In this document: one piece after another, positions 415 to 59,866 of the stretch
Layout: every line of letters starts with the position of its first letter
Position numbering within the stretch: position 1 is the stretch's first letter
Assembly: GCA_030674455.1 (NCBI GenBank)
Contig: JAUSGQ010000007.1
Span: forward strand, 19,947 to 83,946
DNA length: 64,000 nt
Direction: 5' to 3'
From: a bacterium
Lineage (GTDB): Bacteria > Patescibacteriota > Minisyncoccia > Phycocordibacterales > UBA2100
Translations under genes and position numbers: made by a program
Notes under the pieces: generated by a model
Databases searched by the model: none
The model's input: the letters and a program-made list of their open reading frames with translations, nothing else
What the model was told of the DNA's origin: nothing

Positions 415-741
415 ATGTCTATGGCGTATTTGAAAATCATTGTTTACGTTCCACTTGCCAACGCTGACGCCGTGCGTAAGGCGATAGGATATGCTGGCGG
501 CGGTAAAATCGGTAATTATTCCTTCTGCAGTTTTAGCAGCAGGGGAGTCGGCAGATTTTTACCGGAGACGGGGGCGCATCCTGCGACAGGAGAGATCGGG
601 AAACTTGAACAAGTGGAAGAGGAGCGCATTGAATTCGTTTGTGAGCCGGAATTAAGGGCAAAAGTGGTTGAGGCAATAAAGCGAGCCCACCCATACGAAG
701 AACCCGCGATTGACATCTGGCCTGTAGAAATCGAGCCTTAG
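415..741 (+). CDS. PII-like domain protein resembling the central insert domain of NIF3/YqfO family (GNYSxCSFxSxGxGxF...HPYEEPAxDI motif); called geneX below
   Basis: 108-aa ORF. The motifs GNYSFCSFSSRGVGRF and HPYEEPAIDIWP match the NIF3 middle domain as I recall it. Confidence 0.5.
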   Translation: MSMAYLKIIVYVPLANADAVRKAIGYAGGGKIGNYSFCSFSSRGVGRFLPETGAHPATGEIGKLEQVEEERIEFVCEPELRAKVVEAIKRAHPYEEPAIDIWPVEIEP

Positions 742-752
742 CCACTTTAATA

Positions 753-784
753 ACATTCCAACATTCTGCAGAATGTTGGAATGT
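753..784. repeat. perfect 32-bp palindrome ACATTCCAACATTCTG|CAGAATGTTGGAATGT, followed by a TTCTAGAAATGCT tail (copy 1 of 2)
   Basis: Self-complementary on inspection. A second near-identical copy lies at 1394..1425. Confidence 0.9.
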
Positions 785-855
785 TCTAGAAATGCTTCGG
801 CGGCTGTTGAACCATTAGCACAATGAGAGACTGGATGTCCCAACGCCATAAACAA

Positions 856-884
856 AGAGCAGGCGGGGCGACCTGCTCTTTTTG
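856..884. terminator. bidirectional rho-independent terminator (AGAGCAGG-loop-CCTGCTCT plus T-run, A-run upstream)
   Basis: GC stem with a T5 run, located between convergent genes 415..741(+) and 898..1380(-). Confidence 0.6.
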
Positions 885-897
885 GGTGTATGGGGGG

Positions 898-1380
898 TCA
901 GTCCACGACCTGAACCGCCTCCTTCATCCTTTCGTCAGTAAAGACCCCAACGCCGGTTGACTCTGATGTCTCGCGCAGACTACCGAACTCGGTCACCTCG
1001 AAGAAACCGAACGTGATCTTTCCGGTCGCTCCGTCCCAGTGGTGAGCGATTGTGTCGAAAACGGCGTACAGACCGTCACCGATGGAGGGACACTTTTCTT
1101 CTCCATCAACCAGCGCTACGACGCGATGGGGCGCATGATACTTTATGGCTCCCGTAGCTTCGCATTCCGCCAAAGAAACCACAAGACTCTTCGCCGGGAC
1201 TATTTGTACGCCCTTTTCCACGATGGTAATCCCAGCAGCTTTTAACGCACGCCGTAATTCGGCGCTGATAATTTCGGGCATAATTGCCTCCATTGATTTA
1301 GGGACGGTTTGCCAAGTGCATTCGTCTCCGCGTGGATAATGCATATATATATATCCTGTCAAGGAAAATCCGGCATACAA
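898..1380 (-). CDS. hypothetical protein (called geneY below). True start may be the internal Met, giving about 130 aa. It is flanked by the 32-bp palindrome pair.
   Basis: 160-aa ORF with no family I can name. It sits between the two palindromes and between the geneX 3' end and its diverged duplicate. Confidence 0.4.
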   Translation of the reverse strand: MYAGFSLTGYIYMHYPRGDECTWQTVPKSMEAIMPEIISAELRRALKAAGITIVEKGVQIVPAKSLVVSLAECEATGAIKYHAPHRVVALVDGEEKCPSIGDGLYAVFDTIAHHWDGATGKITFGFFEVTEFGSLRETSESTGVGVFTDERMKEAVQVVD

Positions 1381-1393
1381 ATTAACCCCCGTG

Positions 1394-1425
1394 ACATTCC
1401 AATATTCTTGAGAATGTTGGAATGT
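1394..1425. repeat. copy 2 of the 32-bp palindrome (2 mismatches), plus CGAGAAATGCTA tail
   Basis: ACATTCCAATATTCTTGAGAATGTTGGAATGT. It is in direct orientation with copy 1 (753..784). Confidence 0.9.
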
Positions 1426-1545
1426 CGAGAAATGCTACTGACACAACTGTCCGTAACTATTGACTCATTCTCACGAATTAGACAATAAGGAATTCTATTG
1501 ATGATTTATAACGATCTATTTTGAGCTGGTTTTTTATCGAATACC

Positions 1546-1623
1546 AACTACTTGCTTATTCGCGCGAATAAGCAAGTAGTTACGCAACTAATCTTCCTCC
1601 CTCCATACTCCATACGCGATACG
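1546..1623. repeat. intergenic element, copy 1. It has a perfect 36-bp palindrome AACTACTTGCTTATTCGC|GCGAATAAGCAAGTAGTT (TTCGCGCGAA core) and a conserved ATACTCCATACGCGATACG tail.
   Basis: A second copy lies at 2615..2706, with one mismatch in the palindrome and an identical tail. Confidence 0.85.
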
Positions 1624-1624
1624 A

Positions 1625-1681
1625 CAAGTTCATCCGTATGAAGAACCGGCGATCGATATTTGGCCGATAGAGATTCTTTAA
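1625..1681 (+). pseudogene. diverged duplicate of the 3' terminus of 415..741 (encodes ...HPYEEPAIDIWPIEIL*)
   Basis: The translation matches the C-terminus of geneX in 14 of 15 residues, while DNA identity is only about 70-75%. There is no start codon and no upstream coding context. Confidence 0.7.
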
Positions 1682-1843
1682 CAAAGAATATTTTGTCCAA
1701 TAGAATTCACACGAAGTTCAAGACCTCTTTGTTACTTTTAATTTTGATTCACCGAACGCAACAATTTGCGTGAGCGTTCTGATCTTATTTCTTTTGTTCT
1801 TTAAGGTCCATCCCCATACCCATCATCTAAAGGAGAGAAGGCC

Positions 1844-2368
1844 ATGATGCCTAGAAAGGGAATTCCGCTTCGGAAACGCGGAGGTAGCTTGTTTTTACGT
1901 AGCTACCTGCTTATAAATTCGTCCCTCTGCAGTATCAGCGGAGCGAATGAGCAGCTTGCGAAACTCTCCGAATCGTTGATTGTGATGACGACGAGTGCTG
2001 CGAATTCAGGAGCGCAGATTAAGGATTTTGAATTCCTAAATCCGATTGAAGTCGTTGTTGTTGCGAGCGCTAACGCCGATGCAGTCTTACTAACTGCAGC
2101 TCAAAGATTGGGCTGTTTTACAGTTTGTATCGGAACTCCTGACGATGAAGTCTCGGCGGATTTCATCACTCCTGATGTATTGGAGGCGTTGGACATGTTG
2201 ATGAACCCAACACAACTTAACGAACGTCTGCGCAACGGGCGCGGTAATAAGGGTTCCTTCTGGCAAACTACGATGTATTGGTGGGACTCGGTTCGCTCGT
2301 CTCGGTGGAAGTGCAAGCAAGCTGCCACTTCGCTCATCGCTAACCTCAATAAGGAAATTGTCGCCTGA
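1844..2368 (+). CDS. hypothetical protein
   Basis: 174-aa ORF with no recognisable family. The start is uncertain. Confidence 0.3.
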   Translation: MMPRKGIPLRKRGGSLFLRSYLLINSSLCSISGANEQLAKLSESLIVMTTSAANSGAQIKDFEFLNPIEVVVVASANADAVLLTAAQRLGCFTVCIGTPDDEVSADFITPDVLEALDMLMNPTQLNERLRNGRGNKGSFWQTTMYWWDSVRSSRWKCKQAATSLIANLNKEIVA

Positions 2369-2614
2369 GTCCGGATTTTGCGCGTTTGGCACGGAGGCAA
2401 TGGATATCCCTCTCGCTGTTCGCAGCGCGGGGGATTTCTACACATATTCATCCGAATAATCGGGAAATTTGTGTCAACCACAGTTACAGTATCGTTCACG
2501 CGCAAGAACATTCTAGTGAATTACTGATAAACACTCAACTCCCTAGCACGTTTCGTCCACCAACTGAGTCAAGATTTCCGCTAGTGAGTTACGTGAAAGT
2601 CAGTAGACCATGCA

Positions 2615-2706
2615 AACTACTTGCTTATTCGCGCGAATGAGCAAGTAGTTGAGTATAAATAGTTGAGTATCGAATCTTTCTATATGAATACTCCATACGC
2701 GATACG
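2615..2706. repeat. intergenic element, copy 2 (palindrome AACTACTTGCTTATTCGCGCGAATGAGCAAGTAGTT plus ATACTCCATACGCGATACG tail)
   Basis: Matches 1546..1623. Confidence 0.85.
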
Positions 2707-2776
2707 CCATACTAGATACATATGCATTGCATATCTGATGGGGTATACTGAATCATTAGTAATGCCTTAAAACCTC

Positions 2777-4799: not shown

Positions 4800-5123
4800 C
4801 TGCCCAGTATACAACCAAAACTGCCCTTGCATTTCTGCAGGGGCAGTGAGGTTAGAAACCCCATTGTACACCACTGCACAGTTAATTTCCAGTGAAGGTG
4901 CATAACCCTAAAATAACCTTGAAAAGCTGCCTGTAAGTGCAGGCTCGGAATTCTATTCAGAGCGGAGAATTTCAAGTGATAGTGATTATTATTCTGATGA
5001 GGAGTATTACTATCATGGAGATGAGCCGGATATCTATTCTCCCTAGACACCTAAAATGACATTAGAAGTCTTTATTCTGTGAATTCATCGGTGGACAACA
5101 CGCGGTTCAGCCTGTAGTCTTGT

Positions 5124-6365
5124 TTGATGCAATATAAACCAAGCGATAGGATTCTTAAAAATTATGCGAATGTTCTGGTAAATTTTGCGCTCGGAGGAGG
5201 GAAGGGAATAAAGAAAGGAGAGGTTGTGCGCGTTTCAGCTTCCGAATCGGCGAAGCCGCTTTTTATGGCGGTTTGCAATGCGATTGTGGATGCCGGCGGA
5301 CATGTGATGTCACACTACGGTCCCGACGATGAACAGGGCGACAAGCGCCGCAACGTTTCCGTTTCGCGTTATTTTTACGAGCATGCTACCGACGAGCAGA
5401 TCAAACACTTTCCCGCAAAGTATCTTAAGGGCATCATCGATGAAATGGATCACTCGGTTTTCCTTCTTGCCGAGAAAGACCCGCACGCGCTCAAGGGCAT
5501 AGACGGAAAGAAGATTATGGCGCGCGGGCAAGCTCTCAAGCCGTTTATGGATTGGCGGCACGAGAAAGAATGGAAGGGAAAGTTTACATGGACCATTGCG
5601 CTCTACGGCACGCCAGCTATGGCCAGAGAAGCGGGCCTCTCTGAAAAAGAATACTGGCAACAAATTATCAAAGCCTGCTTTTTGGATGAAAAGGACCCTA
5701 TCGGGAAATGGAAAGCGGTATATCGCGATATAGAAAAATATCGCACTCGCCTCAACAAGTTGTCCCCTCGAATCGACAAACTTCACGCGGTCGGTGAGGA
5801 CATGGATATGTGGTACACGCTGGGAGAGAAGCGTGCGTGGCATGCAGGCTCGGGCCGCAATATACCGTCTTTCGAGATATTTACCTCGCCGGATTGGCGC
5901 GGGACCAACGGCTGGATTCGCGTCAATCAACCGCTTTATCGTTACAGCAATAAAATTACCGGCATCCAGCTGTGGTTTAAGGACGGCCTTGTCGTAAAAA
6001 GCAAAGCAAAAACTAACGAGAAACTGCTAAAGGAAATGATTGCGACGAAAGGTGCCGACAAAATCGGTGAGTATTCATTGACAGACAAACGCCACTCGCG
6101 CATTACCAAATTCATGGCGGAAACATTGTTTGATGAAAACATGGGCGGACCTTTTGGTAACTCACACATTGCGCTCGGCATGAGTTATCGCGACACGTAT
6201 GCAGGTGATGTATCGAAACTTACAGACGCGGAGGCAAAACGCTTGGGCTTCAACGACTCGTCCGTACATACTGATGTTGTTTCAACAACTGACAGAACAG
6301 TAACGGCACACCTCAAAGACGGCTCAACAAAAGTAATCTACAAAGACGGAAAGTTTGTGTTGTGA
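5124..6365 (+). CDS. ampS: aminopeptidase, M29 family (AmpS/PepS-like)
   Basis: At 413 aa the length and overall similarity to the thermophilic metalloprotease M29 family fit, as I recall that family. Confidence 0.65.
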   Translation: MMQYKPSDRILKNYANVLVNFALGGGKGIKKGEVVRVSASESAKPLFMAVCNAIVDAGGHVMSHYGPDDEQGDKRRNVSVSRYFYEHATDEQIKHFPAKYLKGIIDEMDHSVFLLAEKDPHALKGIDGKKIMARGQALKPFMDWRHEKEWKGKFTWTIALYGTPAMAREAGLSEKEYWQQIIKACFLDEKDPIGKWKAVYRDIEKYRTRLNKLSPRIDKLHAVGEDMDMWYTLGEKRAWHAGSGRNIPSFEIFTSPDWRGTNGWIRVNQPLYRYSNKITGIQLWFKDGLVVKSKAKTNEKLLKEMIATKGADKIGEYSLTDKRHSRITKFMAETLFDENMGGPFGNSHIALGMSYRDTYAGDVSKLTDAEAKRLGFNDSSVHTDVVSTTDRTVTAHLKDGSTKVIYKDGKFVL

Positions 6366-6570: not shown

Positions 6571-7338
6571 ATGAAAAACTCACAGCAAGGTTTTGCGCCA
6601 TTGTTACTTCTCGCGATTATCGCACTTTTAGCAATCGGCGGCGGGGCGTATGTGTATTTGCAAAAGAAGCAAGTAAATCTGCCCGAAGTGATTAAGACGC
6701 CTGCGCAGGCAAATCCAATTCCACAAACCCTGCCCCCTCAAAACCCTGTCTCTGATGCTAACAATGTAACTGCTAATTGGGAAACGTACACAAGCACTAA
6801 AGATGGCTACTCATTTCGGTATCCTGAAGAATGGAATATAGGCGATGGAGGAATTTTTTCGAAACAAGGAGTTCCAAGTAGTAGAAATGGATTTTTTGGC
6901 GCTTTTTATGCATCTGATTTATATGTACTGATTCACTCGCCGGAAAGCGCGAATTCCACAAGGAGAGCATCACCGCAAGAGGTAATGTCTGATGACTATC
7001 CATCAAATAGAGGTGTTAAAAAAGAAGAATGGCTTCATATTAATAATATTCCGGTTTTGTATTATGATACAACAAGTGACACCATTCCCGACGGTCCGAA
7101 CGGCGATATTAGATTTGTTATATTTACTGCCGAAAAGCAATACGTTTTTGTACTTAGTCCTGGCAATAAGGTGTCCCCGACATCTTTTGTGCCGGAAGAC
7201 ACCAATACAATGAAAAAGATAATTTCGACTTTTTCATTGCTTAATTCTTTTGATAAATTTGTAGATATGACGTCGATTCCGTTGAGTACTTTCCAATTAA
7301 AAACAACACCGTACCAACCATACCAACAAACACAGTAG
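6571..7338 (+). CDS. secreted/membrane-anchored hypothetical protein (N-terminal signal anchor)
   Basis: N-terminal hydrophobic segment LLLLAIIALLAIGGGAYVYL followed by a Pro/Gln-rich linker. Confidence 0.55.
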   Translation: MKNSQQGFAPLLLLAIIALLAIGGGAYVYLQKKQVNLPEVIKTPAQANPIPQTLPPQNPVSDANNVTANWETYTSTKDGYSFRYPEEWNIGDGGIFSKQGVPSSRNGFFGAFYASDLYVLIHSPESANSTRRASPQEVMSDDYPSNRGVKKEEWLHINNIPVLYYDTTSDTIPDGPNGDIRFVIFTAEKQYVFVLSPGNKVSPTSFVPEDTNTMKKIISTFSLLNSFDKFVDMTSIPLSTFQLKTTPYQPYQQTQ

Positions 7339-7430
7339 GTTTGTAATAAGTACGTATTTAAGACATCTAAGCCCCCAAATAATGAGGCGTTGCAATAAGT
7401 TATAATGTTGGCATGTTATACTAATTTCCC

Positions 7431-7982
7431 ATGAAATTTGAATACGCGACTGGATGGTTAAAATTCATCCTTGGATGGGTGGTTGTATTCTTATTTCGAT
7501 TGATTCCATTTCGTCCGCCTAATTTCGAGCCGATGCTCGCTACTATCATGCCGGTCTCAAAACGGTTCGGCATGCTCGGCAGTTTTCTTTTTGGTTTTTT
7601 GGGAATCGTTTTGTTTGACGCAGTCACATCCGGGTGGGGAAGTTGGACTGTGGTAACGGCAATCGCTTACGGGGTGCTCGGTATAGGTTCACAACTTTAT
7701 TTTAGAAATAGGGAAGCCACTGTTAGAAATTTCTTGAGCTTCGGCATCGTTGGAACTATTTTTTACGACGCAGTGACCGGCCTCACCATCGGCCCGATTT
7801 TCCAAGGCCAGTCGTTTATGGTCGCGCTTACGGGCCAAATACCATTCACGCTAATGCACCTCCTCGGCACAGTGGTCTTCGCGACATTTTTAAGCCCCGC
7901 ACTCTATAGGTGGGTAGTTAGGTCGGAAACCCTTGAATTGAGTGTTATTTTGCCGAAATTTGCCAAAATCGGCATTAAGTAG
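7431..7982 (+). CDS. polytopic membrane protein, possibly an ECF-transporter S component or vitamin-uptake protein
   Basis: About 5 predicted TM helices; 183 aa. Confidence 0.4.
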   Translation: MKFEYATGWLKFILGWVVVFLFRLIPFRPPNFEPMLATIMPVSKRFGMLGSFLFGFLGIVLFDAVTSGWGSWTVVTAIAYGVLGIGSQLYFRNREATVRNFLSFGIVGTIFYDAVTGLTIGPIFQGQSFMVALTGQIPFTLMHLLGTVVFATFLSPALYRWVVRSETLELSVILPKFAKIGIK

Positions 7983-8216
7983 TGTAGGACTTACGCAACA
8001 TCTGAATCGTCTTTGCGAGGCTTTGCCGAAGCAATCTAGGGTTAGAGCTGTAGATTCTGGATTGCTTCGCTCCGCTCGCAAAGACGGGAAGCTCGGTTTT
8101 ACGCTGTCTTTTGGGGTTCTTGCGTAGGTCCTATAGTATAAAAGTATTCCGTATACGGTATTCAGTATTCCGACTTCCATACTGTATACAGAATACAAAA
8201 TACTGTATACTGATAA

Positions 8217-13238: not shown

Positions 13239-14477
13239 ATGCCGATTAACCACGCCATTCAAACGGCCTTTCGGGGGCTTAAAGCGAACAAAACACGCTC
13301 TGCACTCACCATACTAGGGATAGTAATCGGGGTCACGGCCATCATCATGGTGGTTTCGCTCGGGCAGGGCGCAAAGAACCTGATTTTAGGCCAAATTCAG
13401 GGTATTGGGGCGAAAACTATCGGCATTGTCCCGGGCCGTCAACCCAAAGGTCCGACTGATATTTTGGCAACGCTCACCGCGTCGCTAAAGGCGCGGGACA
13501 TCGTTGCATTGTCTCGAAAAGATAATGTACCGCATGCGCAGGACATCATGCCAGTAGTTTTTGGAAGCGAGACCGCGTCATACGGAGGTGAAACCTACAG
13601 GCCGACGATATTCGGGGGCAATGAACTGATGGCCGACATTTACGATTCGTATCCCGATCGCGGCAGAAGCATAACGGCAGACGACGTGCGCAGCTCCGCG
13701 GACGTGGTTGTCTTAGGTCAAACGGTAGTTGAAAAGCTTTCTCCCGACCATGACCTTTTGAACGAACGCATAAAAATCAAAGGTAGGAATTTCTTGGTAA
13801 TCGGAATACTTCCGAAAAAGGGCGGGGCCTCATTCATTAACTTTGATGAAATGGCGCTCATGCCGTACACAACCGCTCAAAATTATATTTTTGGCATCAA
13901 GCACTTTAATCGCGTGGTAGTAAGGGCTGACGATGAGTTGAATGTTGATGTGACTGTTAATGACATAAAGTCTACGCTTAGAGAACTGCACGGTATTACC
14001 GACCCGGAGAAAGACGATTTTGGCATTGAGACGCAGGCCGATGCACTGAAAACAGTCGGTACGATCCTCACCACCATGACGGTATTTCTGGCTATGGTTG
14101 CGGCAATATCGCTCGTAGTGGGAGGCATAGGAATTATGAACATAATGCTTGTTTCCGTGACGGACAGAACGCGGGAAATCGGGCTGCGAAAAGCGCTCGG
14201 CGCGACCAATAGAGACATTCTTATGCAATTCCTGCTTGAGGCAATCATCTTGACCGGCATTGGGGGAATCGTAGGCATTTTATTGGGTACCGGACTTTCA
14301 TTTGCAATTTCTTTAGTGATTACAAATGTGTTCGGTCTGATTTGGTCGTTTACATTCCCTCTAGGCGCTGCGATAGTCGGGATTCTAATTTCAACCATTG
14401 TTGGTCTTGTGTTCGGTCTTTACCCCGCTAGAAAGGCCTCACTGATGAGTCCTATTGAGGCTCTTCGGCACGAGTAG
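13239..14477 (+). CDS. ABC transporter permease, FtsX/MacB family
   Basis: MacB-type periplasmic domain and a C-terminal FtsX 4-TM domain. Confidence 0.85.
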   Translation: MPINHAIQTAFRGLKANKTRSALTILGIVIGVTAIIMVVSLGQGAKNLILGQIQGIGAKTIGIVPGRQPKGPTDILATLTASLKARDIVALSRKDNVPHAQDIMPVVFGSETASYGGETYRPTIFGGNELMADIYDSYPDRGRSITADDVRSSADVVVLGQTVVEKLSPDHDLLNERIKIKGRNFLVIGILPKKGGASFINFDEMALMPYTTAQNYIFGIKHFNRVVVRADDELNVDVTVNDIKSTLRELHGITDPEKDDFGIETQADALKTVGTILTTMTVFLAMVAAISLVVGGIGIMNIMLVSVTDRTREIGLRKALGATNRDILMQFLLEAIILTGIGGIVGILLGTGLSFAISLVITNVFGLIWSFTFPLGAAIVGILISTIVGLVFGLYPARKASLMSPIEALRHE

Positions 14478-14532
14478 CCTTTATTCACTTGCAGCGAATT
14501 CAAAGAGCGCGCTGGCTTTCATACGGGGCAGG

Positions 14533-14587
14533 CCCCGCTAGAAAGGCCTCACTGATGAGTCCTATTGAAGCCCTTAGACACGAATAA
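14533..14587 (+). pseudogene. duplicate of the permease 3' terminus (encodes PARKASLMSPIEALRHE*), part of a ~110-bp tandem duplication
   Basis: The first 37 nt are identical to 14423..14459. The last 6 codons differ only synonymously, so the peptide is identical. Confidence 0.75.
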
Positions 14588-14686
14588 ACTTAATTATCTT
14601 GCTGTGTAAGTTATTGATCACGCTGGCCTCCTTACGGGGCATGCGACCGCCAAAGAAACTTTCTCAATTTTGCCAAGACAGAATGT

Positions 14687-30500: not shown

Positions 30501-30838
30501 CCTTTCTCCTCCAGTTCAAGGCCGAGATTAAGCGCGGTTTGGCCGCCGAACCCTAGGAGAATCGCATCGGGTTTTTCTTTCTTGATAACCTGTACGGCAA
30601 ACGGCAAGGTAAGTGGCAAGAGGTAGACGACGTCTGCTACGTTTTCACTCTTTGCATCAGTTCCTTGAGCTGGCGAGTCCGTTTGAACTGTTGCGATATT
30701 CGGATTTATGAGTATGACGCGAATGCCTTCTTCTTTAAGAGCCTTAATCGCTTGTGTGCCGGAGTAATCAAATTCTCCGGCCTGACCGATTTTAAGACCG
30801 CCTGAACCGAGCAACAATACTTTTTTTATGGTCGTCAT
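27539..30838 (-). CDS. carB: carbamoyl-phosphate synthase large subunit
   Basis: 1099 aa with two ATP-grasp halves and an MGS-like C-terminal domain. Confidence 0.95.
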   Translation of the reverse strand: MTTIKKVLLLGSGGLKIGQAGEFDYSGTQAIKALKEEGIRVILINPNIATVQTDSPAQGTDAKSENVADVVYLLPLTLPFAVQVIKKEKPDAILLGFGGQTALNLGLELEEKGILSKYKVQVLGTPVSVIRETEDRDMFIKRLQKIDVKTARSFAARNISDAKKAATKIGYPVMLRAGFALGGLGSGVVRTEKELVAKLSEIFGSSPQVLIEEDLCGWKEVEYEIVRDRTDNCISVCNMENIDPMGIHTGESMVVAPSQTLTNEEYHRLREIAIKTIRHLGVVGECNIQYALHPKTGDYRVIEVNARLSRSSALASKATGYPLAFIAAKLAMGFTLPQLKNSVTKSTTACFEPALDYIVLKMPRWDLTKFENAITQIGTEMKSVGEVMAIGRSFEEVLQKAIRMLSIGADGFVAHKNGNFRVANYLDEIKHPTTRRIFAIAEALRRGTSVSKISRLSGGIDPWFLEKMKNIMRCSRNLRRSDLPGRSDLLREDMLEAKKLGFSDIQIATLIKSTEDKIRQERMRHKILPVIKQIDTLAGEFPAKTNYLYVTYNGTENDIGRTKKSMIVLGSGPYCIGSSVEFDWSCVQALKTLSKNEYETIMINSNPETVSTDYDMSSRLYFEELSLERVLDIYQFEKARGVVISTGGQIPNNLALPLHKRGVRIMGTKPEDIDRAEDRHTFSKLLDRLEIDQPEWVELTTHKEAAIAAARIGYPVLVRPSYVLSGSAMSVAHDETSLLRFLKRAVDISTEHPVVISKFIENAREIEIDGVASRGKLIIYAITEHVENAGTHSGDATVVLPPQRTYMETIRRAKHITKDVVKELKITGPFNIQFIAKDNHLQVIECNVRSSRSFPFVSKATGYNFIDIATRAMLGKDVSGDYRTLELDYIAVKSPQFSYARIKGADPVSNVEMASTGEVACFGDTFSEALIKSMLASGFRLPRPKRRRLPYKSRRSRSEVGIPTKASGNILISLGKEENKIKLLSALQELAKMNFKLFATEHTADFMRENGIACEKVYKIGGKEPNVGTLIEKGKVDLIINIPAQAFGRDAIDGYIIRRKAVDLNIPLITNRQLAEAFIMAFAGIKASELKSISVDAYT
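27935..28015. repeat. structured insert in the carB C-terminal region (direct repeats TCCCGACGCTTTGGTCGGG x2 with CTCGCTTCGCGAG between), encoding RPKRRRLPYKSRRSRSEVGIPTKAS on the minus strand
   Basis: Nested hairpins are visible. An arginine-rich segment of about 25 aa is absent from E. coli CarB at this position, as I recall it. Confidence 0.6.
29370..29404. repeat. perfect 17-1-17 palindrome AGAAGGTCTGACCTTCC-A-GGAAGGTCAGACCTTCT in frame in carB, encoding RRSDLPGRSDL
   Basis: The palindrome reads RSDLPGRSDL on both strands. It appears to be an 11-12-aa insertion relative to other CarB sequences. Confidence 0.75.
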
Positions 30839-30843
30839 ATGAG

Positions 30844-30943
30844 TGCCAATCTACAAATGGACTCCAATCTACAAATAACTACGAATAAGCAATGCTCACA
30901 TTTGTAGCTATTCGTAGTATTCGGATGATTCGTAGATTGGGAC
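30844..30943. repeat. ~100-bp composite palindromic repeat (CCAATCTACAAAT ... ATTCGTAGATTGG), family copy R1 of 6, REP/BIME-like
   Basis: It shares words with the copies at 42502, 47001, 48156, 49350 and 61654, and it fills the carA-carB spacer. Confidence 0.85.
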
Positions 30944-42496: not shown

Positions 42497-42501
42497 ATTG
42501 T

Positions 42502-42597
42502 CCCAATCTACGAATCATCCGAATACTACAAATGACTGCAAATACTCGCATTTCTTATTCGTAGACATTTGTAGATTGGAATCCATTTGTAGATTGG
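42502..42597. repeat. composite GTAG-palindromic repeat, copy R2, filling the recR-dnaB spacer
   Basis: It has the words CCAATCTACGAAT and ATTTGTAGATTGG, the latter twice. Confidence 0.85.
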
Positions 42598-42601
42598 CAC
42601 T

Positions 42602-43990
42602 TCAAAACGGTGAATCTTCTTCACCGACTTTTGCCTCGGTCGCAAAATCTCCAAAATCGCTCTTTTCTATCGGAAGAAAAGTGGTTTTGGCCTCATCAAA
42701 CCGCAGGTCGATTTTACCCACGGGGCCGTTGCGGTGCTTCTCTATCATGATTTCTGCAATGCCCGGCCTGTCTGAATTCTCGTTCATTTTGTCGTCGCGG
42801 TGTATGAACATGACGACATCCGCGTCTTGCTCCAGAGCGCCCGAGTCGCGAAGGTCGGAGAGGCGCGGTTTTCCTCGCCGACTCTCCACCGCACGCGAAA
42901 GCTGGGAAAGCGCAAGAACCGGCACGTCTAGCTCGCGCGCCATTGCTTTAAGTGAGCGGGATATTTCCGTTATCTGCTGGACCATTGAATCTCCTCCGCG
43001 CGCGTGAAGGGGAGTTATAAGCTGAAGATAATCAATTACGACGAGACCAAGACCTTTTTCCATCTTTAGCCGGCGGGCGACAGAACGCATCGAGAGAACC
43101 GTACTGCTTGGCCTGTCATCAATGTATATAGGCGCTTCGGATAGAACACTGAGTCCCGCCTGCAGCCGCTCGTATTCCGCGTCTTTTGAAATCTTGCCGG
43201 TGCGCAAGCGCCACGCATCAACTCCCGCCTGAGCCGCGAGCATTCTGTCTACGAGCTGTTGGGAACTCATTTCCAAAGAGAAGATGCCGACAGCCGTTCC
43301 ATGCTTAGTCGCTGTCTGGCGAGCTATGTCCAAAGCAAGCGCAGTCTTTCCCATTGAAGGTCTCGCCGCGAGAATGATGAGGTCTGATTTTTGGAAGCCA
43401 GCGAGAATATTATCTAGCTGGGGAAAACCGGTGGGAACGCCTCGTATCGTGCCGCCGTGTTTCTGAAGATGCTCCAACCGTTCCCACGCTTCCGACAACT
43501 CGTCTTTGAGCGCCGAAAAAGATTGCAGCATCGGCGAATTAGCAACTCTAAAAACTGCGGCCTGCGCCTCATCTAAGATTTCTTCTATTTCGCGGTCTTC
43601 CTGAAAGCCAAGCTCTCCAATCGTTGAGGCGGCATTTATGAGTGAGCGAAGAATAAATTTCGTCTGTACAACGTGCGCGTAATGCTGGGCGCTCCCGGGG
43701 CTCGCCGCGGCTCCCGTTAATTCCGAAAGGTACGCCGCACCGCCTATGTCCGCGAGTTGCTTTCGTTCTTTGAGCTTGCCGGAAACTGTAACTACATCAA
43801 TGGGTTCGCCTTTAGAGTAAAGAGCCATCATTGATTCATAGATGACGCGATGCTTACCGGCATAAAACGAGTCCGCGATTACAATGTCCGCGACCTCGTA
43901 CATCGCGTTCTGGTTCATCATGAGCGCCCCGAGGAGTGCGCGCTCTGTTTCAACATCTTGCGGCGGAACTCTCGGAGTATTCACTGACAT
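42602..43990 (-). CDS. dnaB: replicative DNA helicase
   Basis: DnaB N-terminal domain, Walker A GARPSMGKT and RecA-like motifs. Confidence 0.9.
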   Translation of the reverse strand: MSVNTPRVPPQDVETERALLGALMMNQNAMYEVADIVIADSFYAGKHRVIYESMMALYSKGEPIDVVTVSGKLKERKQLADIGGAAYLSELTGAAASPGSAQHYAHVVQTKFILRSLINAASTIGELGFQEDREIEEILDEAQAAVFRVANSPMLQSFSALKDELSEAWERLEHLQKHGGTIRGVPTGFPQLDNILAGFQKSDLIILAARPSMGKTALALDIARQTATKHGTAVGIFSLEMSSQQLVDRMLAAQAGVDAWRLRTGKISKDAEYERLQAGLSVLSEAPIYIDDRPSSTVLSMRSVARRLKMEKGLGLVVIDYLQLITPLHARGGDSMVQQITEISRSLKAMARELDVPVLALSQLSRAVESRRGKPRLSDLRDSGALEQDADVVMFIHRDDKMNENSDRPGIAEIMIEKHRNGPVGKIDLRFDEAKTTFLPIEKSDFGDFATEAKVGEEDSPF

Positions 43991-47000: not shown

Positions 47001-47114
47001 CCCAATCTGCAAATATATTCCAATCAACGAATGAATCCCAATCTACAAATGGCTACGAATGGACAATGCTTACATTTGTAGTTATTCGTAGTATTCGTAT
47101 CATTTGTAGATTGG
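47001..47114. repeat. composite GTAG-palindromic repeat, copy R3 (ends 7 nt before the mltG start)
   Basis: Same family. Confidence 0.85.
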
Positions 47115-47120
47115 AACTCT

Positions 47121-48152: not shown

Positions 48153-48155
48153 AGT

Positions 48156-48266
48156 GCCAATCTGCGAATGATACGAATACTACGAATGGCTACAAATGTG
48201 AGTGTTGATTATTCGTAGTTATTTGTAGATTGGAATATATTCGTAGATTGGTACTTGTTAGATTGG
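48156..48266. repeat. composite GTAG-palindromic repeat, copy R4
   Basis: Same family. Confidence 0.85.
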
Positions 48267-48273
48267 AACATGT

Positions 48274-49392
48274 ATGTCAAAAACAGTTTTCGTTGGTTTG
48301 TCGGGTGGCGTCGATTCCGCCGTTTCGGCTGCGCTGCTTAAAGAGCAAGGCTATAACGTCGCTGGCGTATTCATAAAAATCTGGCAACCTGAATTTATAG
48401 AATGCACGTGGGCGAAAGACCGTCTGGACGCGATGCGCGTTTGCGTTTCGCTCGGAATCCCGTTCCAGGAAATAGACCTTTCATCTGATTACAAACGCAC
48501 GGTTGTGGACGACATGATCTCCGCATATTCGCGCGGCATCACTCCAAATCCGGATGTCCTGTGCAATAGACACATAAAATTCGGCAGTTTTATGAACTAT
48601 GCGCGCAAAGAGGGTGCGGATTATATTGCGACGGGACATTACGCCCGTGTCGCCTTAGGCGACCGCAGATTTACGCAGAAAGAACCCAAAAACGTATACA
48701 AATTATTAAGAGGGTCAGATAACAATAAAGACCAGTCATACTTCTTGTACTTATTGAAACAGGATGACCTTGTGCATACGCTATTCCCCGTGGGAAATCT
48801 TTTAAAGTCAGAGGTAAGGAAGCTTGCAGCTAAGTTTTCTCTTCCTGTTGCAGAAAAATCCGATAGCCAAGGATTGTGCTTTGTCGGCGATGTGACGATG
48901 AAGGATTTTCTCTCGAGATATATGAAACTCGACGAAGGAAAAGTCATAGATACAAATGGCACATGCATAGGCAGTCACGAAGGAGCTGCGCTTTATACGA
49001 TAGGACAACGACACGGATTCACAACCGAGCGCCTTGCGGGTGACAGAACCCCGTACTATGTCGTCTCTGTTAATATTCCCGCGAATACAATAACTGTTTC
49101 CACAAGGCGCGACGACGCAACGCAAAAAGATATACGCATCGACTCAATGCATTGGATATCGGGCGCTCCGGAAATGCCGTTGCGCGCACAAACACAGGCG
49201 AGATATAGAGAAAAACCGAGCGAAGCAACAATTTCTGTAGAGGGTGGAGGTGTGAGCGTTGCTTTTGATGAGCCGCAAATTGCCGCGGCCGGGCAATCGA
49301 TCGTTGTGTATAACGACGACACATGTTTAGGCGGAGGCACCATAGAGTACCAATCTACGAATGAATTCCAATCTACAAATAACTACGAATAA
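48274..49392 (+). CDS. mnmA: tRNA-specific 2-thiouridylase MnmA. The last ~14 codons (YQSTNEFQSTNNYE) are encoded by repeat copy R5.
   Basis: PP-loop SGGVDS and MnmA domains. The ORF reads into the repeat before reaching a stop. Confidence 0.9.
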   Translation: MSKTVFVGLSGGVDSAVSAALLKEQGYNVAGVFIKIWQPEFIECTWAKDRLDAMRVCVSLGIPFQEIDLSSDYKRTVVDDMISAYSRGITPNPDVLCNRHIKFGSFMNYARKEGADYIATGHYARVALGDRRFTQKEPKNVYKLLRGSDNNKDQSYFLYLLKQDDLVHTLFPVGNLLKSEVRKLAAKFSLPVAEKSDSQGLCFVGDVTMKDFLSRYMKLDEGKVIDTNGTCIGSHEGAALYTIGQRHGFTTERLAGDRTPYYVVSVNIPANTITVSTRRDDATQKDIRIDSMHWISGAPEMPLRAQTQARYREKPSEATISVEGGGVSVAFDEPQIAAAGQSIVVYNDDTCLGGGTIEYQSTNEFQSTNNYE

Positions 49393-50341: not shown

Positions 50342-50449
50342 GTACAGTATACAGTATTCCGTATTCCGTATTCTGTATTCTGTATTTTTTATACAGTATA
50401 CTAGATACTGAATACAGTATACACGTTTAAGGGTGCTATACTTTGAATT

Positions 50450-51977: not shown

Positions 51978-52712
51978 ATGATTATGACCGAGAAGCAGGA
52001 ACAGGAATCGGACGTTAAGATGGAAGAATCATGGAAAAACGCGTTAAAGGATGAATTCGGGCAGGACTACTTCAAGCAACTGCGGGAATTCGTCAAAGGC
52101 GAGTACAAGCATGCCATCGTGTACCCGCCGCCAAAGAATATCTTTCGCGCGTTTGAGCTTTGCCCCTTTGATAAAGTCGAGGTTGTGCTACTCGGACAAG
52201 ACCCATATCACGGCCCGAAACAGGCAAATGGACTCTGTTTCGCAGTGAGCGAAGGGCTTGCTCTACCGCCCTCTCTTCAGAATATCTTTAAGGAATTGGC
52301 CGCAGATATGGGATTGTCCCACGATGCCTTGCTTGCCCGTCGAAGCCTTGGCGAAGTCGGGGCGAAGAAGGGTGGAACTCTTGAGGATTGGGCCAAGCAA
52401 GGTGTTCTACTACTCAATGCAACATTGACCGTGGCAGCGCGCGCGCCCGGTTCGCATCAAGGAAAGGGGTGGGAAGAATTTACCGATGCGGTTATACGCA
52501 AACTTTCTAACGAGCGCGAGAATCTAGTCTTTATTCTTTGGGGCAACTACGCAAAAGCCAAAGGCGCGCACATCGACCGCACCAAGCACCTCGTCATTGA
52601 ATCCGCGCACCCTTCGCCTTTTTCCGCCGACCGCTTCTTCGGCTCTAAACCTTTCAGCAAAACGAACGAATATCTGAAAGCCCACGACAAAAAGCCGATT
52701 GATTGGTTGTAA
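51978..52712 (+). CDS. ung: uracil-DNA glycosylase, family 1
   Basis: GQDPYHGP, LLLNATLTV and HPSPFSA motifs, with C-terminal KKPIDWL. Confidence 0.9.
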   Translation: MIMTEKQEQESDVKMEESWKNALKDEFGQDYFKQLREFVKGEYKHAIVYPPPKNIFRAFELCPFDKVEVVLLGQDPYHGPKQANGLCFAVSEGLALPPSLQNIFKELAADMGLSHDALLARRSLGEVGAKKGGTLEDWAKQGVLLLNATLTVAARAPGSHQGKGWEEFTDAVIRKLSNERENLVFILWGNYAKAKGAHIDRTKHLVIESAHPSPFSADRFFGSKPFSKTNEYLKAHDKKPIDWL

Positions 52713-52713
52713 T

Positions 52714-52742
52714 CTTCTACCAAGGTCTTACCTTGGTAGAAG
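52714..52742. repeat. 27-bp GTAG-type palindrome CTTCTACCAAGGT-CTT-ACCTTGGTAGAAG (REP-like, left flank of RAYT). It begins 2 nt after the ung stop, and its right arm encodes the RAYT C-terminal LLPR.
   Basis: The palindrome is visible. Inverted-centre copies lie at 53439..53465 and 53235..53258. Confidence 0.85.
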
Positions 52743-53420
52743 TTCGTTATCATCTTGCCGAGCATATATTTTTGCCTCCTCGATAAGTTGGTCAATCGTT
52801 TGCGAAGCATCGAGTATTTCCAACACCGGCTCTTTGTTTATGATAGAGGACTCCGGACGCGTTCCTGAGTAGTCGAGAAAACTGGAGTACTGATACTCCG
52901 ATAAAAATTTCCGCAAATTCTTTTCGTTCTGTATCGAACATTGTTTCCATTTCGGCTCTATTAGCTCTGCAGGGTTTGCATGAATATAACTAACTACTCT
53001 ATTTAGATTCTGATCCGACTCTATTCGTTTCGCCTTAAAGGTGCCTTGAAACAATGCTCCGTTACGTTCGTATTTGATATTGAAGTACATCGTGTAGCCC
53101 GTTCCGAGCTGTCGCATAAAGGATGTGATGCCTCCATAATTATGTTCACGTAAAAACAGGTGATGATGGTTTGGCATCAGGCAGTACGCGCCAATGTCCA
53201 CGAGTTTTTCTTTTCTCTCAACTGCCGCCACGAGTTCTACCAAGGTCTTACCTTGGTTGATGTTGCTGATATGTATTGGTTCGCGACTGTTACATGCATA
53301 TAGAAGCATCACAAATCGCTCGTAGTCTTCTGGATTTGTGAAAACGACCCGCTTATCAACGCCGCGATTGTAGCAGTGATACCATTCGTTCGGTGCGAAG
53401 GAAATTGTTCGCTGTCCCAT
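52728..53420 (-). mobile_element. IS200-like HUH tyrosine transposase (REP-associated tyrosine transposase, RAYT-like)
   Basis: WYHCYNRG (YHVxxRG-like), HUH motif CLMPNHHHLFL and catalytic-Tyr region YIHANPAE. The track ORF starts at TTG 53510, but the likely start is Met 53420. Confidence 0.75.
53235..53258. repeat. internal copy of the RAYT-flank palindrome (TTCTACCAAGGTCTTACCTTGGTTGA) in frame inside the RAYT gene (encodes INQGKTLVEL)
   Basis: Same word, with arms degenerate by 2 nt. Confidence 0.7.
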
Positions 53421-53438
53421 ATCGATAATAATAACATG

Positions 53439-53465
53439 TTCTACCAAGGTAAGACCTTGGTAGAG
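53439..53465. repeat. right-flank palindrome TTCTACCAAGGT-AAG-ACCTTGGTAGAG (centre inverted relative to the left copy)
   Basis: The REP pair is in inverted orientation around the RAYT gene. Confidence 0.85.
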
Positions 53466-53484
53466 ACTTCCAGTGGATAAGAGT

Positions 53485-53574
53485 TTCTTCGGCTCAAAAC
53501 CCTTAGGCAAGACGAATGAATACCTTGTGGATCTTCCAAAGGTCTCTCCTCGAGAATTCAGTATTTTGAGGTGA
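53485..53574 (+). pseudogene. diverged duplicate of the ung 3' terminus (encodes FFGSKPLGKTNEYL... then diverges)
   Basis: About 80% nucleotide identity to ung 52634..52680 (FFGSKPFSKTNEYL). There is no upstream coding context. Confidence 0.7.
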
Positions 53575-53730
53575 GGCCTTGGGGATTTTTAAGGTTTAAC
53601 CTTGGTTGCATAACGAGTTTTCTCTCCCTTTACTGACTACGTACTACTAACTACTGACTGCCAAGCCAATTGACTCTCTCTCTCTGATTTGAGATAGTGT
53701 CGCCAGTCGACCTAATGCATTAGGTCTTAT

Positions 53731-53997
53731 ATGGAGGCAAAAATGGCTGATGAGAAAACGCATCCGACATACGCGCAACTCGTTGCGAAAGTCGAGCGGT
53801 TGGAAAGGAATGAGAAACGGTTAGTAGAGTGGTCCAAAACACTTGGACCCATCTTCAAACAGCTTGAGGACGCACTGAATGACCTCGCCACGAACCACGG
53901 CAGGTCGCAGTCTCGCGCTCAAATACTGATGGAACCGTTCATCTCACTCGAAACCAAGCCGGATGGAAGCCCCATGCGGCCGATAGAAGGAGGGTGA
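53731..53997 (+). CDS. hypothetical protein
   Basis: 88-aa ORF preceded by a TACTACTAACTAC repeat block. Confidence 0.35.
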   Translation: MEAKMADEKTHPTYAQLVAKVERLERNEKRLVEWSKTLGPIFKQLEDALNDLATNHGRSQSRAQILMEPFISLETKPDGSPMRPIEGG

Positions 53998-54048: not shown

Positions 54049-55329
54049 TTAGGCTCGCAAAAGAGAGAGGAACTTTTCTCTATCCAAATGCGGACCAATA
54101 ATTGCGAGGTTCAATCCTTCTGTCCGCAACAGGTCTTTAGCTACTCTGAAAACATCTGACGCTTTCACTTTGTCTATGCCCCTTGTGATGTCCTCCATCG
54201 TGCGGATTTTGCCGAGACTAATAAGAGATGTCGCGGCCTGCGCGGCCACGGCGTCGCTCGTTTCGAGCGCCATGGCAAGCGTTCCCTTGATGTGTGCTTT
54301 TGCCTTCTTAAGTTCTTCGTCCGATACCTTCACGTTCTTTATCTTGCGGAATTCCGCGAGAATAGTAGTGATGGCCTTTTCCAGCTTTCCATGCTCAACG
54401 CCGGCCTGAACCGCAAGGTAGCCGGTGTCTGGATATTTCTCAACCGATGCATGTACTGAATAGGCGAGGCCTCTCTTTTCGCGCACTTCCAAAAACAAAC
54501 GGCTCGACATGCCGCCGCCTAGTATAGTCGCTAGAACTTCCAAAACGTATTCATCCTTGTGCGCATAAGGATATGAAGGAACGCCGAGCATCAATTGAGT
54601 CTGGTCGGTTTTCTTTTCCTTAATTGCAACGCGAGGACTCACTTGCATTGACGCGAAAGGAACAAACCGCGGAGCGGGACTCTTCGCCACTTTCCCGAAT
54701 GAACGGTTTATAGCATCCAAAACTTTCTGTTCCGATATCGCGCCTGCAACGCACACCACAGTATTTTCCGGAGTGTAGTGATGCTTCAAATAATTTGCAA
54801 AATCCTTCCGCATGAACGTGCGGATGTTATCTTTCGGTCCCAAGATTGTTCGCCCCAACGGGTGGTCGCCGCCAAAAATGAGTTCATCAAACACGTTATC
54901 AATAATACGCATCGGCATGTCCTCATACATATCAATTTCTTGAATGATCGCACCGCGCTCCTTCGTAATTTCCTTGCCGGGCAATGTCGAGTTGAGGAAA
55001 ATGTCGCTGATTACATCAAGAGCCGTGTCCAAATACTTACTGCTCACTTTCGCGTAATATGCCGTCCTGTCCTTCGCGGTGAACGCGTTATAAACGCTTC
55101 CTATCGCATCCAATTCTTCGCTGATGAGCCGCGCGCTCGGGCGATTCTTCGTCCCTTTAAAAAACATGTGCTCAAGAAAGTGCGCCAGGCCGTTCTCTTC
55201 TTTTGTTTCGTAGCGCGAACCAGTACCCGCCATAACGACAACAGTCGCCGTTTTGGCATCGAGCATTGGCACGAGTACGACACGGAGTCCGTTATGCAGA
55301 GTGTGGATGTTGTACTTCATTCCGAGCAA
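54049..55329 (-). CDS. M16-family (insulinase-like) zinc peptidase
   Basis: HFLEHMFFKGT (HxxEH) motif; 426 aa. Confidence 0.85.
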   Translation of the reverse strand: MLGMKYNIHTLHNGLRVVLVPMLDAKTATVVVMAGTGSRYETKEENGLAHFLEHMFFKGTKNRPSARLISEELDAIGSVYNAFTAKDRTAYYAKVSSKYLDTALDVISDIFLNSTLPGKEITKERGAIIQEIDMYEDMPMRIIDNVFDELIFGGDHPLGRTILGPKDNIRTFMRKDFANYLKHHYTPENTVVCVAGAISEQKVLDAINRSFGKVAKSPAPRFVPFASMQVSPRVAIKEKKTDQTQLMLGVPSYPYAHKDEYVLEVLATILGGGMSSRLFLEVREKRGLAYSVHASVEKYPDTGYLAVQAGVEHGKLEKAITTILAEFRKIKNVKVSDEELKKAKAHIKGTLAMALETSDAVAAQAATSLISLGKIRTMEDITRGIDKVKASDVFRVAKDLLRTEGLNLAIIGPHLDREKFLSLLRA

Positions 55330-58493: not shown

Positions 58494-58562
58494 ACATAAT
58501 TTTTACACTACTTACTACTAACTACCGACTACTAACTATTTTCTGCGTTATAATGTTAGCTA

Positions 58563-59726: not shown

Positions 59727-59866
59727 AAGAGTATCTTGTATACTGTATGCTGTATTCAGTATGATAGAATCATCGTTATACACTTTAGTTGCGAGAGGGA
59801 GTTGTGTATTTATGAGTTATACTAAATACTAATACGGAATACTGTATACCGTATACTAATTTTGAT

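Follow-up and report, generated by a model that had tools for sequence, protein, structure and literature searches.

We analyzed a stretch of 64,000 nucleotides (hereafter the window; contig JAUSGQ010000007.1 of assembly GCA_030674455.1, positions 19,947 to 83,946) from a Kaiserbacteria-like member of the Patescibacteria. The window contains a full-length ung gene, encoding a family-1 uracil-DNA glycosylase (UDG), and the 3' end of this gene is found a second time further downstream. Between the two ung ends lies a unit made of a gene for a RAYT (a transposase associated with repetitive extragenic palindromes, REPs) and two REP hairpins. Beyond the second ung end follow a small open reading frame (ORF), orf88, and, on the opposite strand, the gene for an M16-family peptidase. 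The nearest Ung is 83% identical to the one encoded in the window; with either of its two alternative starts, the window Ung had no exact-sequence match in the database. The features are listed in Table 1. Loci from other assemblies are denoted by L followed by a number.

Table 1. Features of the ung locus and of the further gene-end duplications in the window. Positions count from the first nucleotide of the window; differences between copies are given for codon positions 1/2/3; HM, hairpin module; z, fold score.
Feature	Position	Strand	Evidence and remarks
ung, family-1 uracil-DNA glycosylase, full length	51978..52712	+	NCBIfam equivalog 306 bits (cutoff 162); TIGR00628 263 bits; Pfam UDG
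Proximal ung terminus (repeat copy 1), FFGSKPFSKTNEYLKAHDKKPIDWL + stop	52635..52712	+	Unit duplicated in many species
REP hairpin 1, 13-bp stem, loop CTT	52714..52742		1 nt past the ung stop; single-stranded DNA fold -13.2 kcal/mol, z -7.7
RAYT-like Y1 (HUH) transposase gene, 230 aa	52728..53420	-	Only gene of the insert; Pfam Y1_Tnp 34.3 bits (cutoff 23)
REP-like palindrome inside the RAYT ORF	53235..53264		Encodes the conserved NQGKTLVE; fold z -4.0; not an insertion (alignment A1)
REP hairpin 2, loop AAG	53439..53465		Inverted relative to REP hairpin 1; upstream of the RAYT start; z -4.8
Spacer between REP hairpin 2 and the distal terminus, 19 nt	53466..53484		Conserved in the L011 and L163 RAYT cassettes
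Distal ung terminus (relic), first ~16 codons kept: FFGSKPLGKTNEYLV	53485..53533	+	
Replacement stretch, ~127 nt	53534..53660		Degenerate REP-like sequence 53589-53605; ACTAC-type oligo-repeat 53636-53664
Downstream flank common to other species	53661..53730	+	Motif TTGACTCTCTCTCT at 53670; scans as orf88 promoter
orf88, small ORF between the scar and the M16 gene	53731..53997	+	Called as a gene in L001 too
M16-family peptidase gene	54049..55329	-	Conserved right-hand neighbor that defines the hotspot
Gene X, conserved 108-aa protein	415..741	+	Last 54 nt (688-741) duplicated downstream
Gene X site, insert A	742..1630		Hairpin h2 753-784; ORF160 (-) 898-1380; hairpin h2 1394-1425; HM1 1541-1581
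Distal copy of the gene X end, HPYEEPAIDIWPIEIL + stop	1631..1680	+	34/44 nt identical; differences 1/0/9
Gene X site, insert B	1681..2709		ORF174 (+) 1844-2368; HM2 2610-2650 with spacer repeat
End of the 13239-14477 ORF, PARKASLMSPIEALRHE + stop	14423-14476; repeated 110 nt downstream at 14533-14586	+	Differences 1/0/4

The ung reading frame ends with RFFGSKPFSKTNEYLKAHDKKPIDWL and a stop codon, and the ORF at 53473-53574, which contains the distal copy, translates as MDKSFFGSKPLGKTNEYLVDLPKVSPREFSILR followed by a stop. A first-pass annotation, made from the nucleotide sequence alone, had given the coordinates and peptides of both ends correctly and had put the identity of the first ~45 nt at about 80%. 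In the best local alignment (52635-52675 versus 53485-53525), 34 of 41 nt (83%) are identical; the score is 47, and blastn run within the window gives an E-value of 8e-7. The top score of the same ung-end query elsewhere in the window, with both strands considered, is 26. The distal copy is in frame (FFGSKP[F/L][S/G]KTNEYL), and six of the eight codons changed among the first 14 are synonymous.

According to the same annotation, the copy degenerates after ~45 nt. Comparison with the ung ends of other species (e.g., L008, which ends in ...GAATATCTTGTGGCT) extends the homology to ~53533 (NEYLV), i.e., over ~49 nt. Beyond this point, ~29 nt of a full terminus are missing, and the ~127-nt replacement stretch stands in their place. 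The distal copy is not simply degenerating; in three species its conservation is well above the neutral level. The REP-like sequence within the replacement stretch has lost its fold (z -0.3). In two other loci, one with a HicAB cassette (L006) and one with a RAYT cassette (L163), the motif found in the downstream flank of the window is located 9-10 nt past the stop codon of the distal terminus. The same motif follows the relic in the window, which indicates that the distal copy once ended an intact ung with this flank. The relic represents the 5' portion of what was formerly a whole ung 3' terminus, and its connection to the downstream flank, the orf88 promoter, persists. A further relic, with the reading AKPID at ~53663, was considered and rejected; its sequence belongs to the downstream flank found in other species as well, rather than to the lost end of the terminus. 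The contig of L001, a separate Logan assembly, is 100% identical to the window from the M16 gene through the relic and the RAYT into the ung end.

We compared 45 Kaiserbacteria-like loci that include the ung-to-M16 interval. The order PDDEXK nuclease, ung, variable interval, and M16 peptidase (on the opposite strand) is kept in all 45. The gap between ung and M16 ranges from 3 nt to 4.2 kb. Uninterrupted ung loci, which the first-pass annotation had proposed as the reference for the insertion boundaries, do exist among these relatives: the gap is empty, defined as at most 95 nt, in 11 of the 45. At 15 distinct loci (the window, L005, L006, L008, L009/L099, L011, L012/L107, L052, L083, L085, L090, L093, L106, L146, and L163), ung is followed by one to three extra ung termini. 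The arrays in L008 and L090 contain three extra copies each; the L008 array is built of four termini (78-84 nt each) with one cassette in each of the three spaces between them. An inverted copy at the contig end of L017 was set aside as a probable assembly artifact.

The boundaries of the repeat recur between loci. In intact copies the right boundary is the stop codon, and the left boundary is located 0-14 nt before TTCTTCGG; L146, whose Ung is only 64% identical, obeys the same boundaries. A few distal copies are longer and start at ung residue 163, 170, or 211. The arrangement of gene end, insert, and second gene end had been read as an attL/attR-type scar, and the empty sites, the recurrence in 15 loci, and the shared distal flank bear this reading out. 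The second ung end is confirmed as genuine, and as a recombination scar of the attL/attR type at the ung 3' end. Short-read contigs tend to be interrupted within arrays (L009 and L099) or at the left side of a terminus copy (L001, proximal terminus), which is consistent with repeats or population heterogeneity at the junctions.

The cassettes between the termini are 0.4-1.4 kb long and differ in cargo: PemK/MazF, HicA with a HicB-like partner, a DUF5678 protein with an aspartyl protease, a 242-aa protein of unknown type, a 68-aa ORF, or a RAYT. Other occupied gaps contain ParB-like genes, TrpR-like genes, and in one case a weak, sub-threshold match to HEPN. The DUF5678-protease, MazF, and HicAB cassettes open with an extended -10 box right past the preceding stop codon. 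Five cassettes of three cargo kinds end, directly before the next terminus, with a conserved hairpin module, TTATTTGCTnATTCGCTTGAATAAGCAAATAG followed by nTAcAGGCACTArCGGC. The distance from this module to the next terminus is fixed at 17 nt (L006, L008 twice, L085, and L106), and in all three RAYT cassettes REP hairpin 2 is located ~20 nt before the relic. The ung-M16 interval is a recombination hotspot that collects short cassettes, each parted from the next by another ung terminus, up to four in a row.

The hairpin at the core of the module, (C)TTGCTTATTCG-NNN(N)-CGAATAAGCAA(G), folds strongly, is kept across species, and is always found at the right-hand end of a cassette, at two target genes (window 1541-1581 and 2610-2650; L174 4505; L006 7366; L008 7965 and 8615; L085 4960). 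Possible identities are a mobile module akin to REPs and a conserved terminator. Separate from the module, REP-like intergenic palindromes, e.g., AACACCCTCAAATCCCTGCCGGCAAGCTTGCGGA, are present in the ung-to-M16 interval of L086 (minus strand, ~5160-5195, 6698-6736, and 7427-7464) and of L136.

Where distal and proximal copies differ, they do so mostly at third codon positions. Summed over all arrays, with the misregistered L005 pair left out, codon positions 1/2/3 differ 54/49/160 times. If one copy decayed neutrally, a ratio of 1:1:2 would be expected, which the counts exceed at the third position (chi-square ~12.5, p ~0.002). The three gene-end pairs in the window yield 4/2/22, and non-coding repeats in the window, used as a control, yield even counts (e.g., 14/13/12). 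The third-position bias beyond 1:1:2 indicates that each copy once served as a functional ung end, in lineages distinct from one another. Between species, the distal copies are 75-83% identical, with 84-88% identity at positions 1+2, compared with ~50% at the near-neutral third positions of the flanking genes. Either the distal copies arose recently, or they have been renewed time and again. Over 2,485 nt, L009 and L099 differ only by 12 mismatches, all of them in the distal terminus (L009 7339-7393); we read this difference, due to a conversion patch or to a swap of the terminus between strains, as a sign that the terminus copies exchange patches.

Two further gene-end duplications are found in the window, and neither involves a RAYT. 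At gene X, inserts A and B flank the relic copy of the gene end, one on each side, and the native purF leader and purF (2777-4213) follow behind insert B. HM1, at the right-hand end of insert A, belongs to the same family of hairpin modules as those at the ung cassettes. In relatives, purF comes straight after gene X, at a distance of 38, 106, or 315 nt (empty sites L173, L174, and L176); the 315-nt gap, from the same metagenome-assembled genome (MAG) as L008, has kept the hairpins, and the cargo is absent. The second case concerns the 13239-14477 ORF, a putative FtsX-type permease judging by its C-terminal motif. Here the last 17 codons are duplicated with identical amino acids, no cargo is present between the copies, and, over the region 14423-14602, the non-coding tails that follow the copies are far more diverged than the coding part. 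The motif CTGATGAG at 14440 was considered as a hammerhead ribozyme; this candidate was rejected, as an Rfam search over the whole window returned one tRNA and nothing else.

A further target was encountered outside the window. Downstream of pyrG in L178, a MazF cassette is located between 101-nt repeats (3326-3426 and 4043-4143) of the end of a small upstream gene (orf52). All seven mismatches between these repeats are at third codon positions, with one conservative E/D change, and the cassette is 67% identical to the MazF cassette at ung in L008. The presence of scars at unrelated genes (gene X, the 13239-14477 ORF, and orf52) argues against a single sequence-specific integrase. Screen hits in L086, in L136, and after 7730 in L167 were rejected as REP-like elements or internal protein repeats. 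A match at 5069 in L167 was not counted, as it runs past the stop codon; the opposite strand carries a large gene there, of which the match is probably an internal repeat. A comparison of L181 and L182 revealed an indel; a gene with an NYN domain is present in L182 and absent from L181. The small ORFs at the window's scars (orf88, ORF160, and ORF174) had zero matches in PHROGs, and PADLOC returned only one marginal match, to ORF174 (E 0.0056).

The insert between the two ung ends in the window is 772 bp long, and the REP-RAYT-REP unit is its sole content. Over 26 nt each, the two hairpins (52716-52741 and 53439-53464) are 100% complementary. The RAYT stop codon (52728-52730) and the last few codons before it are located inside REP hairpin 1, and the convergent ung and RAYT genes share this single hairpin. 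The flanking REPs are also matched by part of the coding sequence inside the very transposase gene that they flank, in the window at 53235-53264 and in L011 at 7207-7231. The RAYT motifs NHHHL (H85, H87) and YIHANP (Y145) are invariant in seven homologues (alignment A1). The protein scored 44.1 bits against the NCBIfam model NF047646 (REP_Tyr_transpos), under the cutoff of 80; some of its homologues carry the Joint Genome Institute (JGI) name RayT. Inverted REP hairpins surround the RAYT likewise in L011, L163, L167, L170, L002, and L007. Homologues that are 55-60% identical and reside at unrelated loci (beside gapA; between yebC and ruvC) have inverted REPs with a common AAGGT-AAG-ACCTT core.

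The RAYT is present in one copy in the 64 kb, and its homologues form clusters that nearly all consist of a single contig. Its close relatives (68-84% identical) always reside in the ung-M16 slot. A search for dispersed REPs in the window returned only the sites at 52717, 53237, and 53441, the degenerate one at 53589, and a weak match at 25089. Between the window, L011, and L163, identity at third codon positions is 0.51-0.60 for the RAYT, 0.51-0.57 for ung, and 0.49-0.53 for M16. With a divergence equal to that of ung and M16, the RAYT behaves as an old, vertically inherited resident and not as a moving element. An IS200/IS605 insertion sequence, which would be expected in several identical copies and beside a 4-5 nt target without a long duplication, was considered and rejected; the unit is single-copy and is flanked by a gene-end repeat of 49-78 nt. 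In L164, a family-4 UDG (4711-5301; TIGR00758, 193 bits) takes the place of the family-1 Ung beside a RAYT that is 68% identical; this UDG is a non-orthologous replacement at the hotspot.

A location inside a gene-end duplication is not a known feature of RAYTs. In other respects, the unit resembles described REP-RAYT systems (PMC2817692, PMC3116915, PMC5581495) in its single-copy Y1/HUH gene, its inverted REPs, and its co-divergence with host genes. It differs from them in the lack of dispersed REPs within the 64 kb of the window, in the sub-cutoff NCBIfam score, and in the REP inside the ORF.

We searched for an enzyme that could have produced the scars. Pfam searches of the tested cargo proteins returned zero recombinases. 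In tblastn searches of the window and 161 loci (~1.8 Mb) with XerD, lambda Int, and gamma-delta resolvase probes, a method of limited sensitivity, there was one match, ~3.7 kb upstream of ung in L051. The exploitation of dif/Xer by integrative mobile elements (IMEX), which insert at the chromosomal dif site of the replication terminus, was rejected: a GC-skew switch is absent at 52-54 kb, and the genes are back on the plus strand after M16. A phage or plasmid attP was also rejected. A degenerate pattern of the terminus matched only a complete ung in a 379-kb contig of the viral collection, and the hairpin module had zero matches there. The ung in this contig (L162; IMGVR_UViG_3300031949_000001) is a family-1 gene whose product is 49% identical to the window Ung. 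At the junction in the window, a microhomology, TCTTC, was seen (by eye only); it is absent in L011 and L163.

Genomic islands with tyrosine integrases, integrative and conjugative elements (ICEs), and integrative and mobilizable elements (IMEs) target the 3' ends of tRNA and protein genes and carry a replacement end; non-autonomous cis-mobilizable elements (CIMEs), tandem accretion, and the tycheposon arrays of Prochlorococcus are known as well. The ung arrays share with these gene-3'-end integrative elements the direct repeats of the gene end, the intact gene, the empty sites, the tandem stacking, and the accessory or selfish cargo. They differ in that an integrase was not found in the cassettes or near them, in that the cassettes are only 0.4-1.4 kb long, and in that the same cargo family occurs at unrelated targets. 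Furthermore, the left boundaries vary by 0-14 nt, sometimes by >100 nt, and the stranded copies keep a coding-type conservation. With integron arrays, the loci share tandem short cassettes, mostly of one or two genes and often with toxin-antitoxin genes, with a repeated site between them and, in some cases, a hairpin at the cassette end. In contrast to integrons, neither IntI nor attI was found, and the repeated site is a coding gene end without a significant fold. An identity of the terminus with integron attC was rejected: it folds no better than shuffled sequences (z -0.14 and -0.41), the GTTRRRY core was not seen by inspection, and an IntI-like gene is absent.

Campbell-type insertion-duplication and homology-facilitated illegitimate recombination have been described from the laboratory in transformable bacteria, e.g., Streptococcus pneumoniae and Acinetobacter. 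We consider it probable that the structure at ung arose as such an insertion-duplication, by Campbell-type or one-sided homologous recombination with DNA of related lineages. The incoming DNA, derived from a related lineage, would bring along a copy of the final ~80 nt of ung, and a crossover with the resident ung would take place inside this ~80-nt stretch. One terminus would then complete ung, while the other would be left stranded beyond the insert. Recombination would be carried out by the homologous recombination machinery of the host, in the Campbell manner or one-sided and facilitated by homology, probably after uptake of DNA. The duplicated conserved gene end would act as a portable homology arm, and terminus-cassette-terminus would be a self-contained knock-in module. 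Homologous recombination by the host is favored by the absence of an integrase, the position of the site away from a replication terminus, the lack of an attC-like fold, the lack of a viral terminus, and the unrelated targets.

As in insertion-duplication, one region of homology is duplicated around the insert, any gene can be the target, the copies come from donor and recipient, and a dedicated recombinase is unneeded. Different functional alleles, as reflected in the codon-position bias, and several targets (ung, gene X, the 13239-14477 ORF, and orf52) were found. In contrast, insertion-duplication is known mainly from experiments, and in the literature searched, natural arrays at one gene end with hairpins at the cassette ends are undescribed. 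The recombination enzyme, the incoming copy, and the route of transfer are what we infer from these patterns.

Several observations weigh against insertion-duplication by the host. When each copy was compared with the termini of the closest relatives as judged by the body of ung, neither copy was favored as the native one (6 versus 6, L146 not counted); with this outcome, the polarity, and hence a supplied replacement terminus, is unproven. The left boundaries cluster within ~15 nt over at least seven cargo types, as expected of a site-specific enzyme; under homologous recombination, this clustering needs common descent of the flank or a hotspot of breaks. The fixed spacing between hairpin and terminus resembles, by analogy, the ends of IS200/IS605 elements and integron attC. 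A recombination intermediate, in the form of a circle junction or a read-level empty-site allele in the same population, was not observed, and the tblastn probes could have passed over a divergent or distant trans-acting recombinase. A more far-reaching version of this explanation, which we put forward only tentatively, is that the loci represent an undescribed class of integrase-less cassettes with a built-in host gene 3' end that, as a homology arm or attachment site, would allow them to knock in behind the gene in any related genome and to build integron-like arrays. A hairpin-recognizing enzyme (RAYT/HUH) may help in this process, and the copies would be kept coding-competent by cycling between expressed and stranded positions.

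The sharp and recurrent boundaries, the arrays, and the empty sites would also be explained by a site-specific recombinase that acts in trans, with the last ~80 nt of ung as attB and with non-autonomous, CIME- or satellite-like cassettes that carry attP and accrete in tandem. The constant spacing between hairpin module and next terminus in five cassettes, which represent three cargo types, fits this possibility too. We nevertheless judge it unlikely: no integrase was found in the cassettes and fetched flanks of ~160 loci, the scars at unrelated genes have no common sequence and the MazF cargo family is found at two targets, some distal copies are far longer (from residue 163, 170, or 211), the terminus is without significant secondary structure, and the viral contigs contain neither an isolated terminus nor the hairpin module. 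A chance similarity, or an assembly artifact that joined strain variants, hardly comes into question. The repeat is short (41-49 nt) and contigs often break at the arrays, but the alignment score and E-value given above stand well clear of the background, the architecture was found in many separate assemblies and sample series (RIFCS MAGs and Hain-, NC_groundwater, and Logan contigs), and L001 repeats the arrangement of the window. Slippage or unequal crossing-over could have duplicated the ung end in situ, with later insertion of the RAYT and decay of the distal copy. This would be the simplest origin, and the 13239-14477 ORF provides a case of a plain 110-nt tandem. Such an origin is very improbable given the third-position excess over 1:1:2, the 13239-14477 ORF and L178 pairs, which are protein-silent save for the one conservative change in L178, the 84-88% identity at positions 1+2 of distal copies from species whose synonymous sites are near 50%, and the many cargoes within the same boundaries.

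The RAYT, or another HUH Y1 enzyme that acts on hairpins of the REPs or of the hairpin module in single-stranded DNA, could itself integrate the cassettes at gene ends and make or carry the replacement terminus, which would be a new behavior of HUH enzymes. The RAYT is the sole recombinase-type gene ever found in the slot, and the layout of REP-RAYT-REP, ~20 nt, and terminus is common to three species. Hairpins located 17-21 nt from the junction are reminiscent of the geometry at the left end of IS200/IS605 elements. Two RAYT subfamilies (42% and 80% identical) both adjoin ung, and one RAYT adjoins the family-4 UDG. However, identical scars surround cargo other than a RAYT (MazF, HicAB, and DUF5678 with the protease), and the DUF5678 and L012 cassettes are without any hairpin. 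Four RAYT loci with inverted REPs show no gene-end duplication (L167 and L170 at other sites; L002 and L007 with distant RAYTs at ung), and the duplication at the 13239-14477 ORF has neither hairpin nor cargo. Moreover, the RAYT has diverged to the same degree as ung and M16 (third-position identity 0.51-0.60 versus 0.49-0.57), and the hairpin module differs in sequence from the REP. It is therefore improbable that a RAYT or a related enzyme is the agent; the RAYT is probably cargo or a long-term resident of the slot and not the integrating enzyme.

These findings also bear on the first-pass annotation, which had tied the scar to the HUH element. The link to the RAYT was not supported by the comparison with the other cassettes and with the two further duplications in the window. 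The annotation had proposed a search for the cassette at other loci; RAYTs with inverted REPs are present at L167 and L170, without a duplicated gene end. To our knowledge, HUH elements are not known for att-type integration at gene 3' ends, and with the RAYT as a probable passenger, the locus is not evidence that HUH transposases integrate in this way.

The Patescibacteria (candidate phyla radiation, CPR) have tiny genomes with few recognizable mobile elements, and how they gain accessory genes is unclear. The ung locus provides a concrete and recurrent route, in which short cassettes, mostly of toxin or selfish genes, are stacked behind conserved housekeeping genes, each enclosed by a copy of the gene end that has stayed coding-like, with no integrase found nearby. 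If host homologous recombination is responsible, the arrays are a natural counterpart of laboratory insertion-duplication and would explain flexible islets in streamlined genomes; if a hairpin-recognizing recombinase is responsible, they represent a new cassette system. The literature that we searched contains no account of ung as an attachment site or of comparable cassette arrays in Patescibacteria.

Apart from the gene-end duplications, the window contains short periodic repeats in intergenic regions, just upstream of genes. Three types were distinguished: CCAATCTACAAATG-type repeats with an 18-nt period, TATTCCGTATTC-type repeats with a 14-nt period, and ACTACTAACTAC-type repeats. Periodic repeats are located at 30828-30886, 42500-42602, 47002-47119, 48154-48256, and 49332-49390, and also at 8138-8208, 50348-50420, and 59732-59861, as well as at 53636-53664 and 58507-58549. 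They may be promoter-region elements of this organism.

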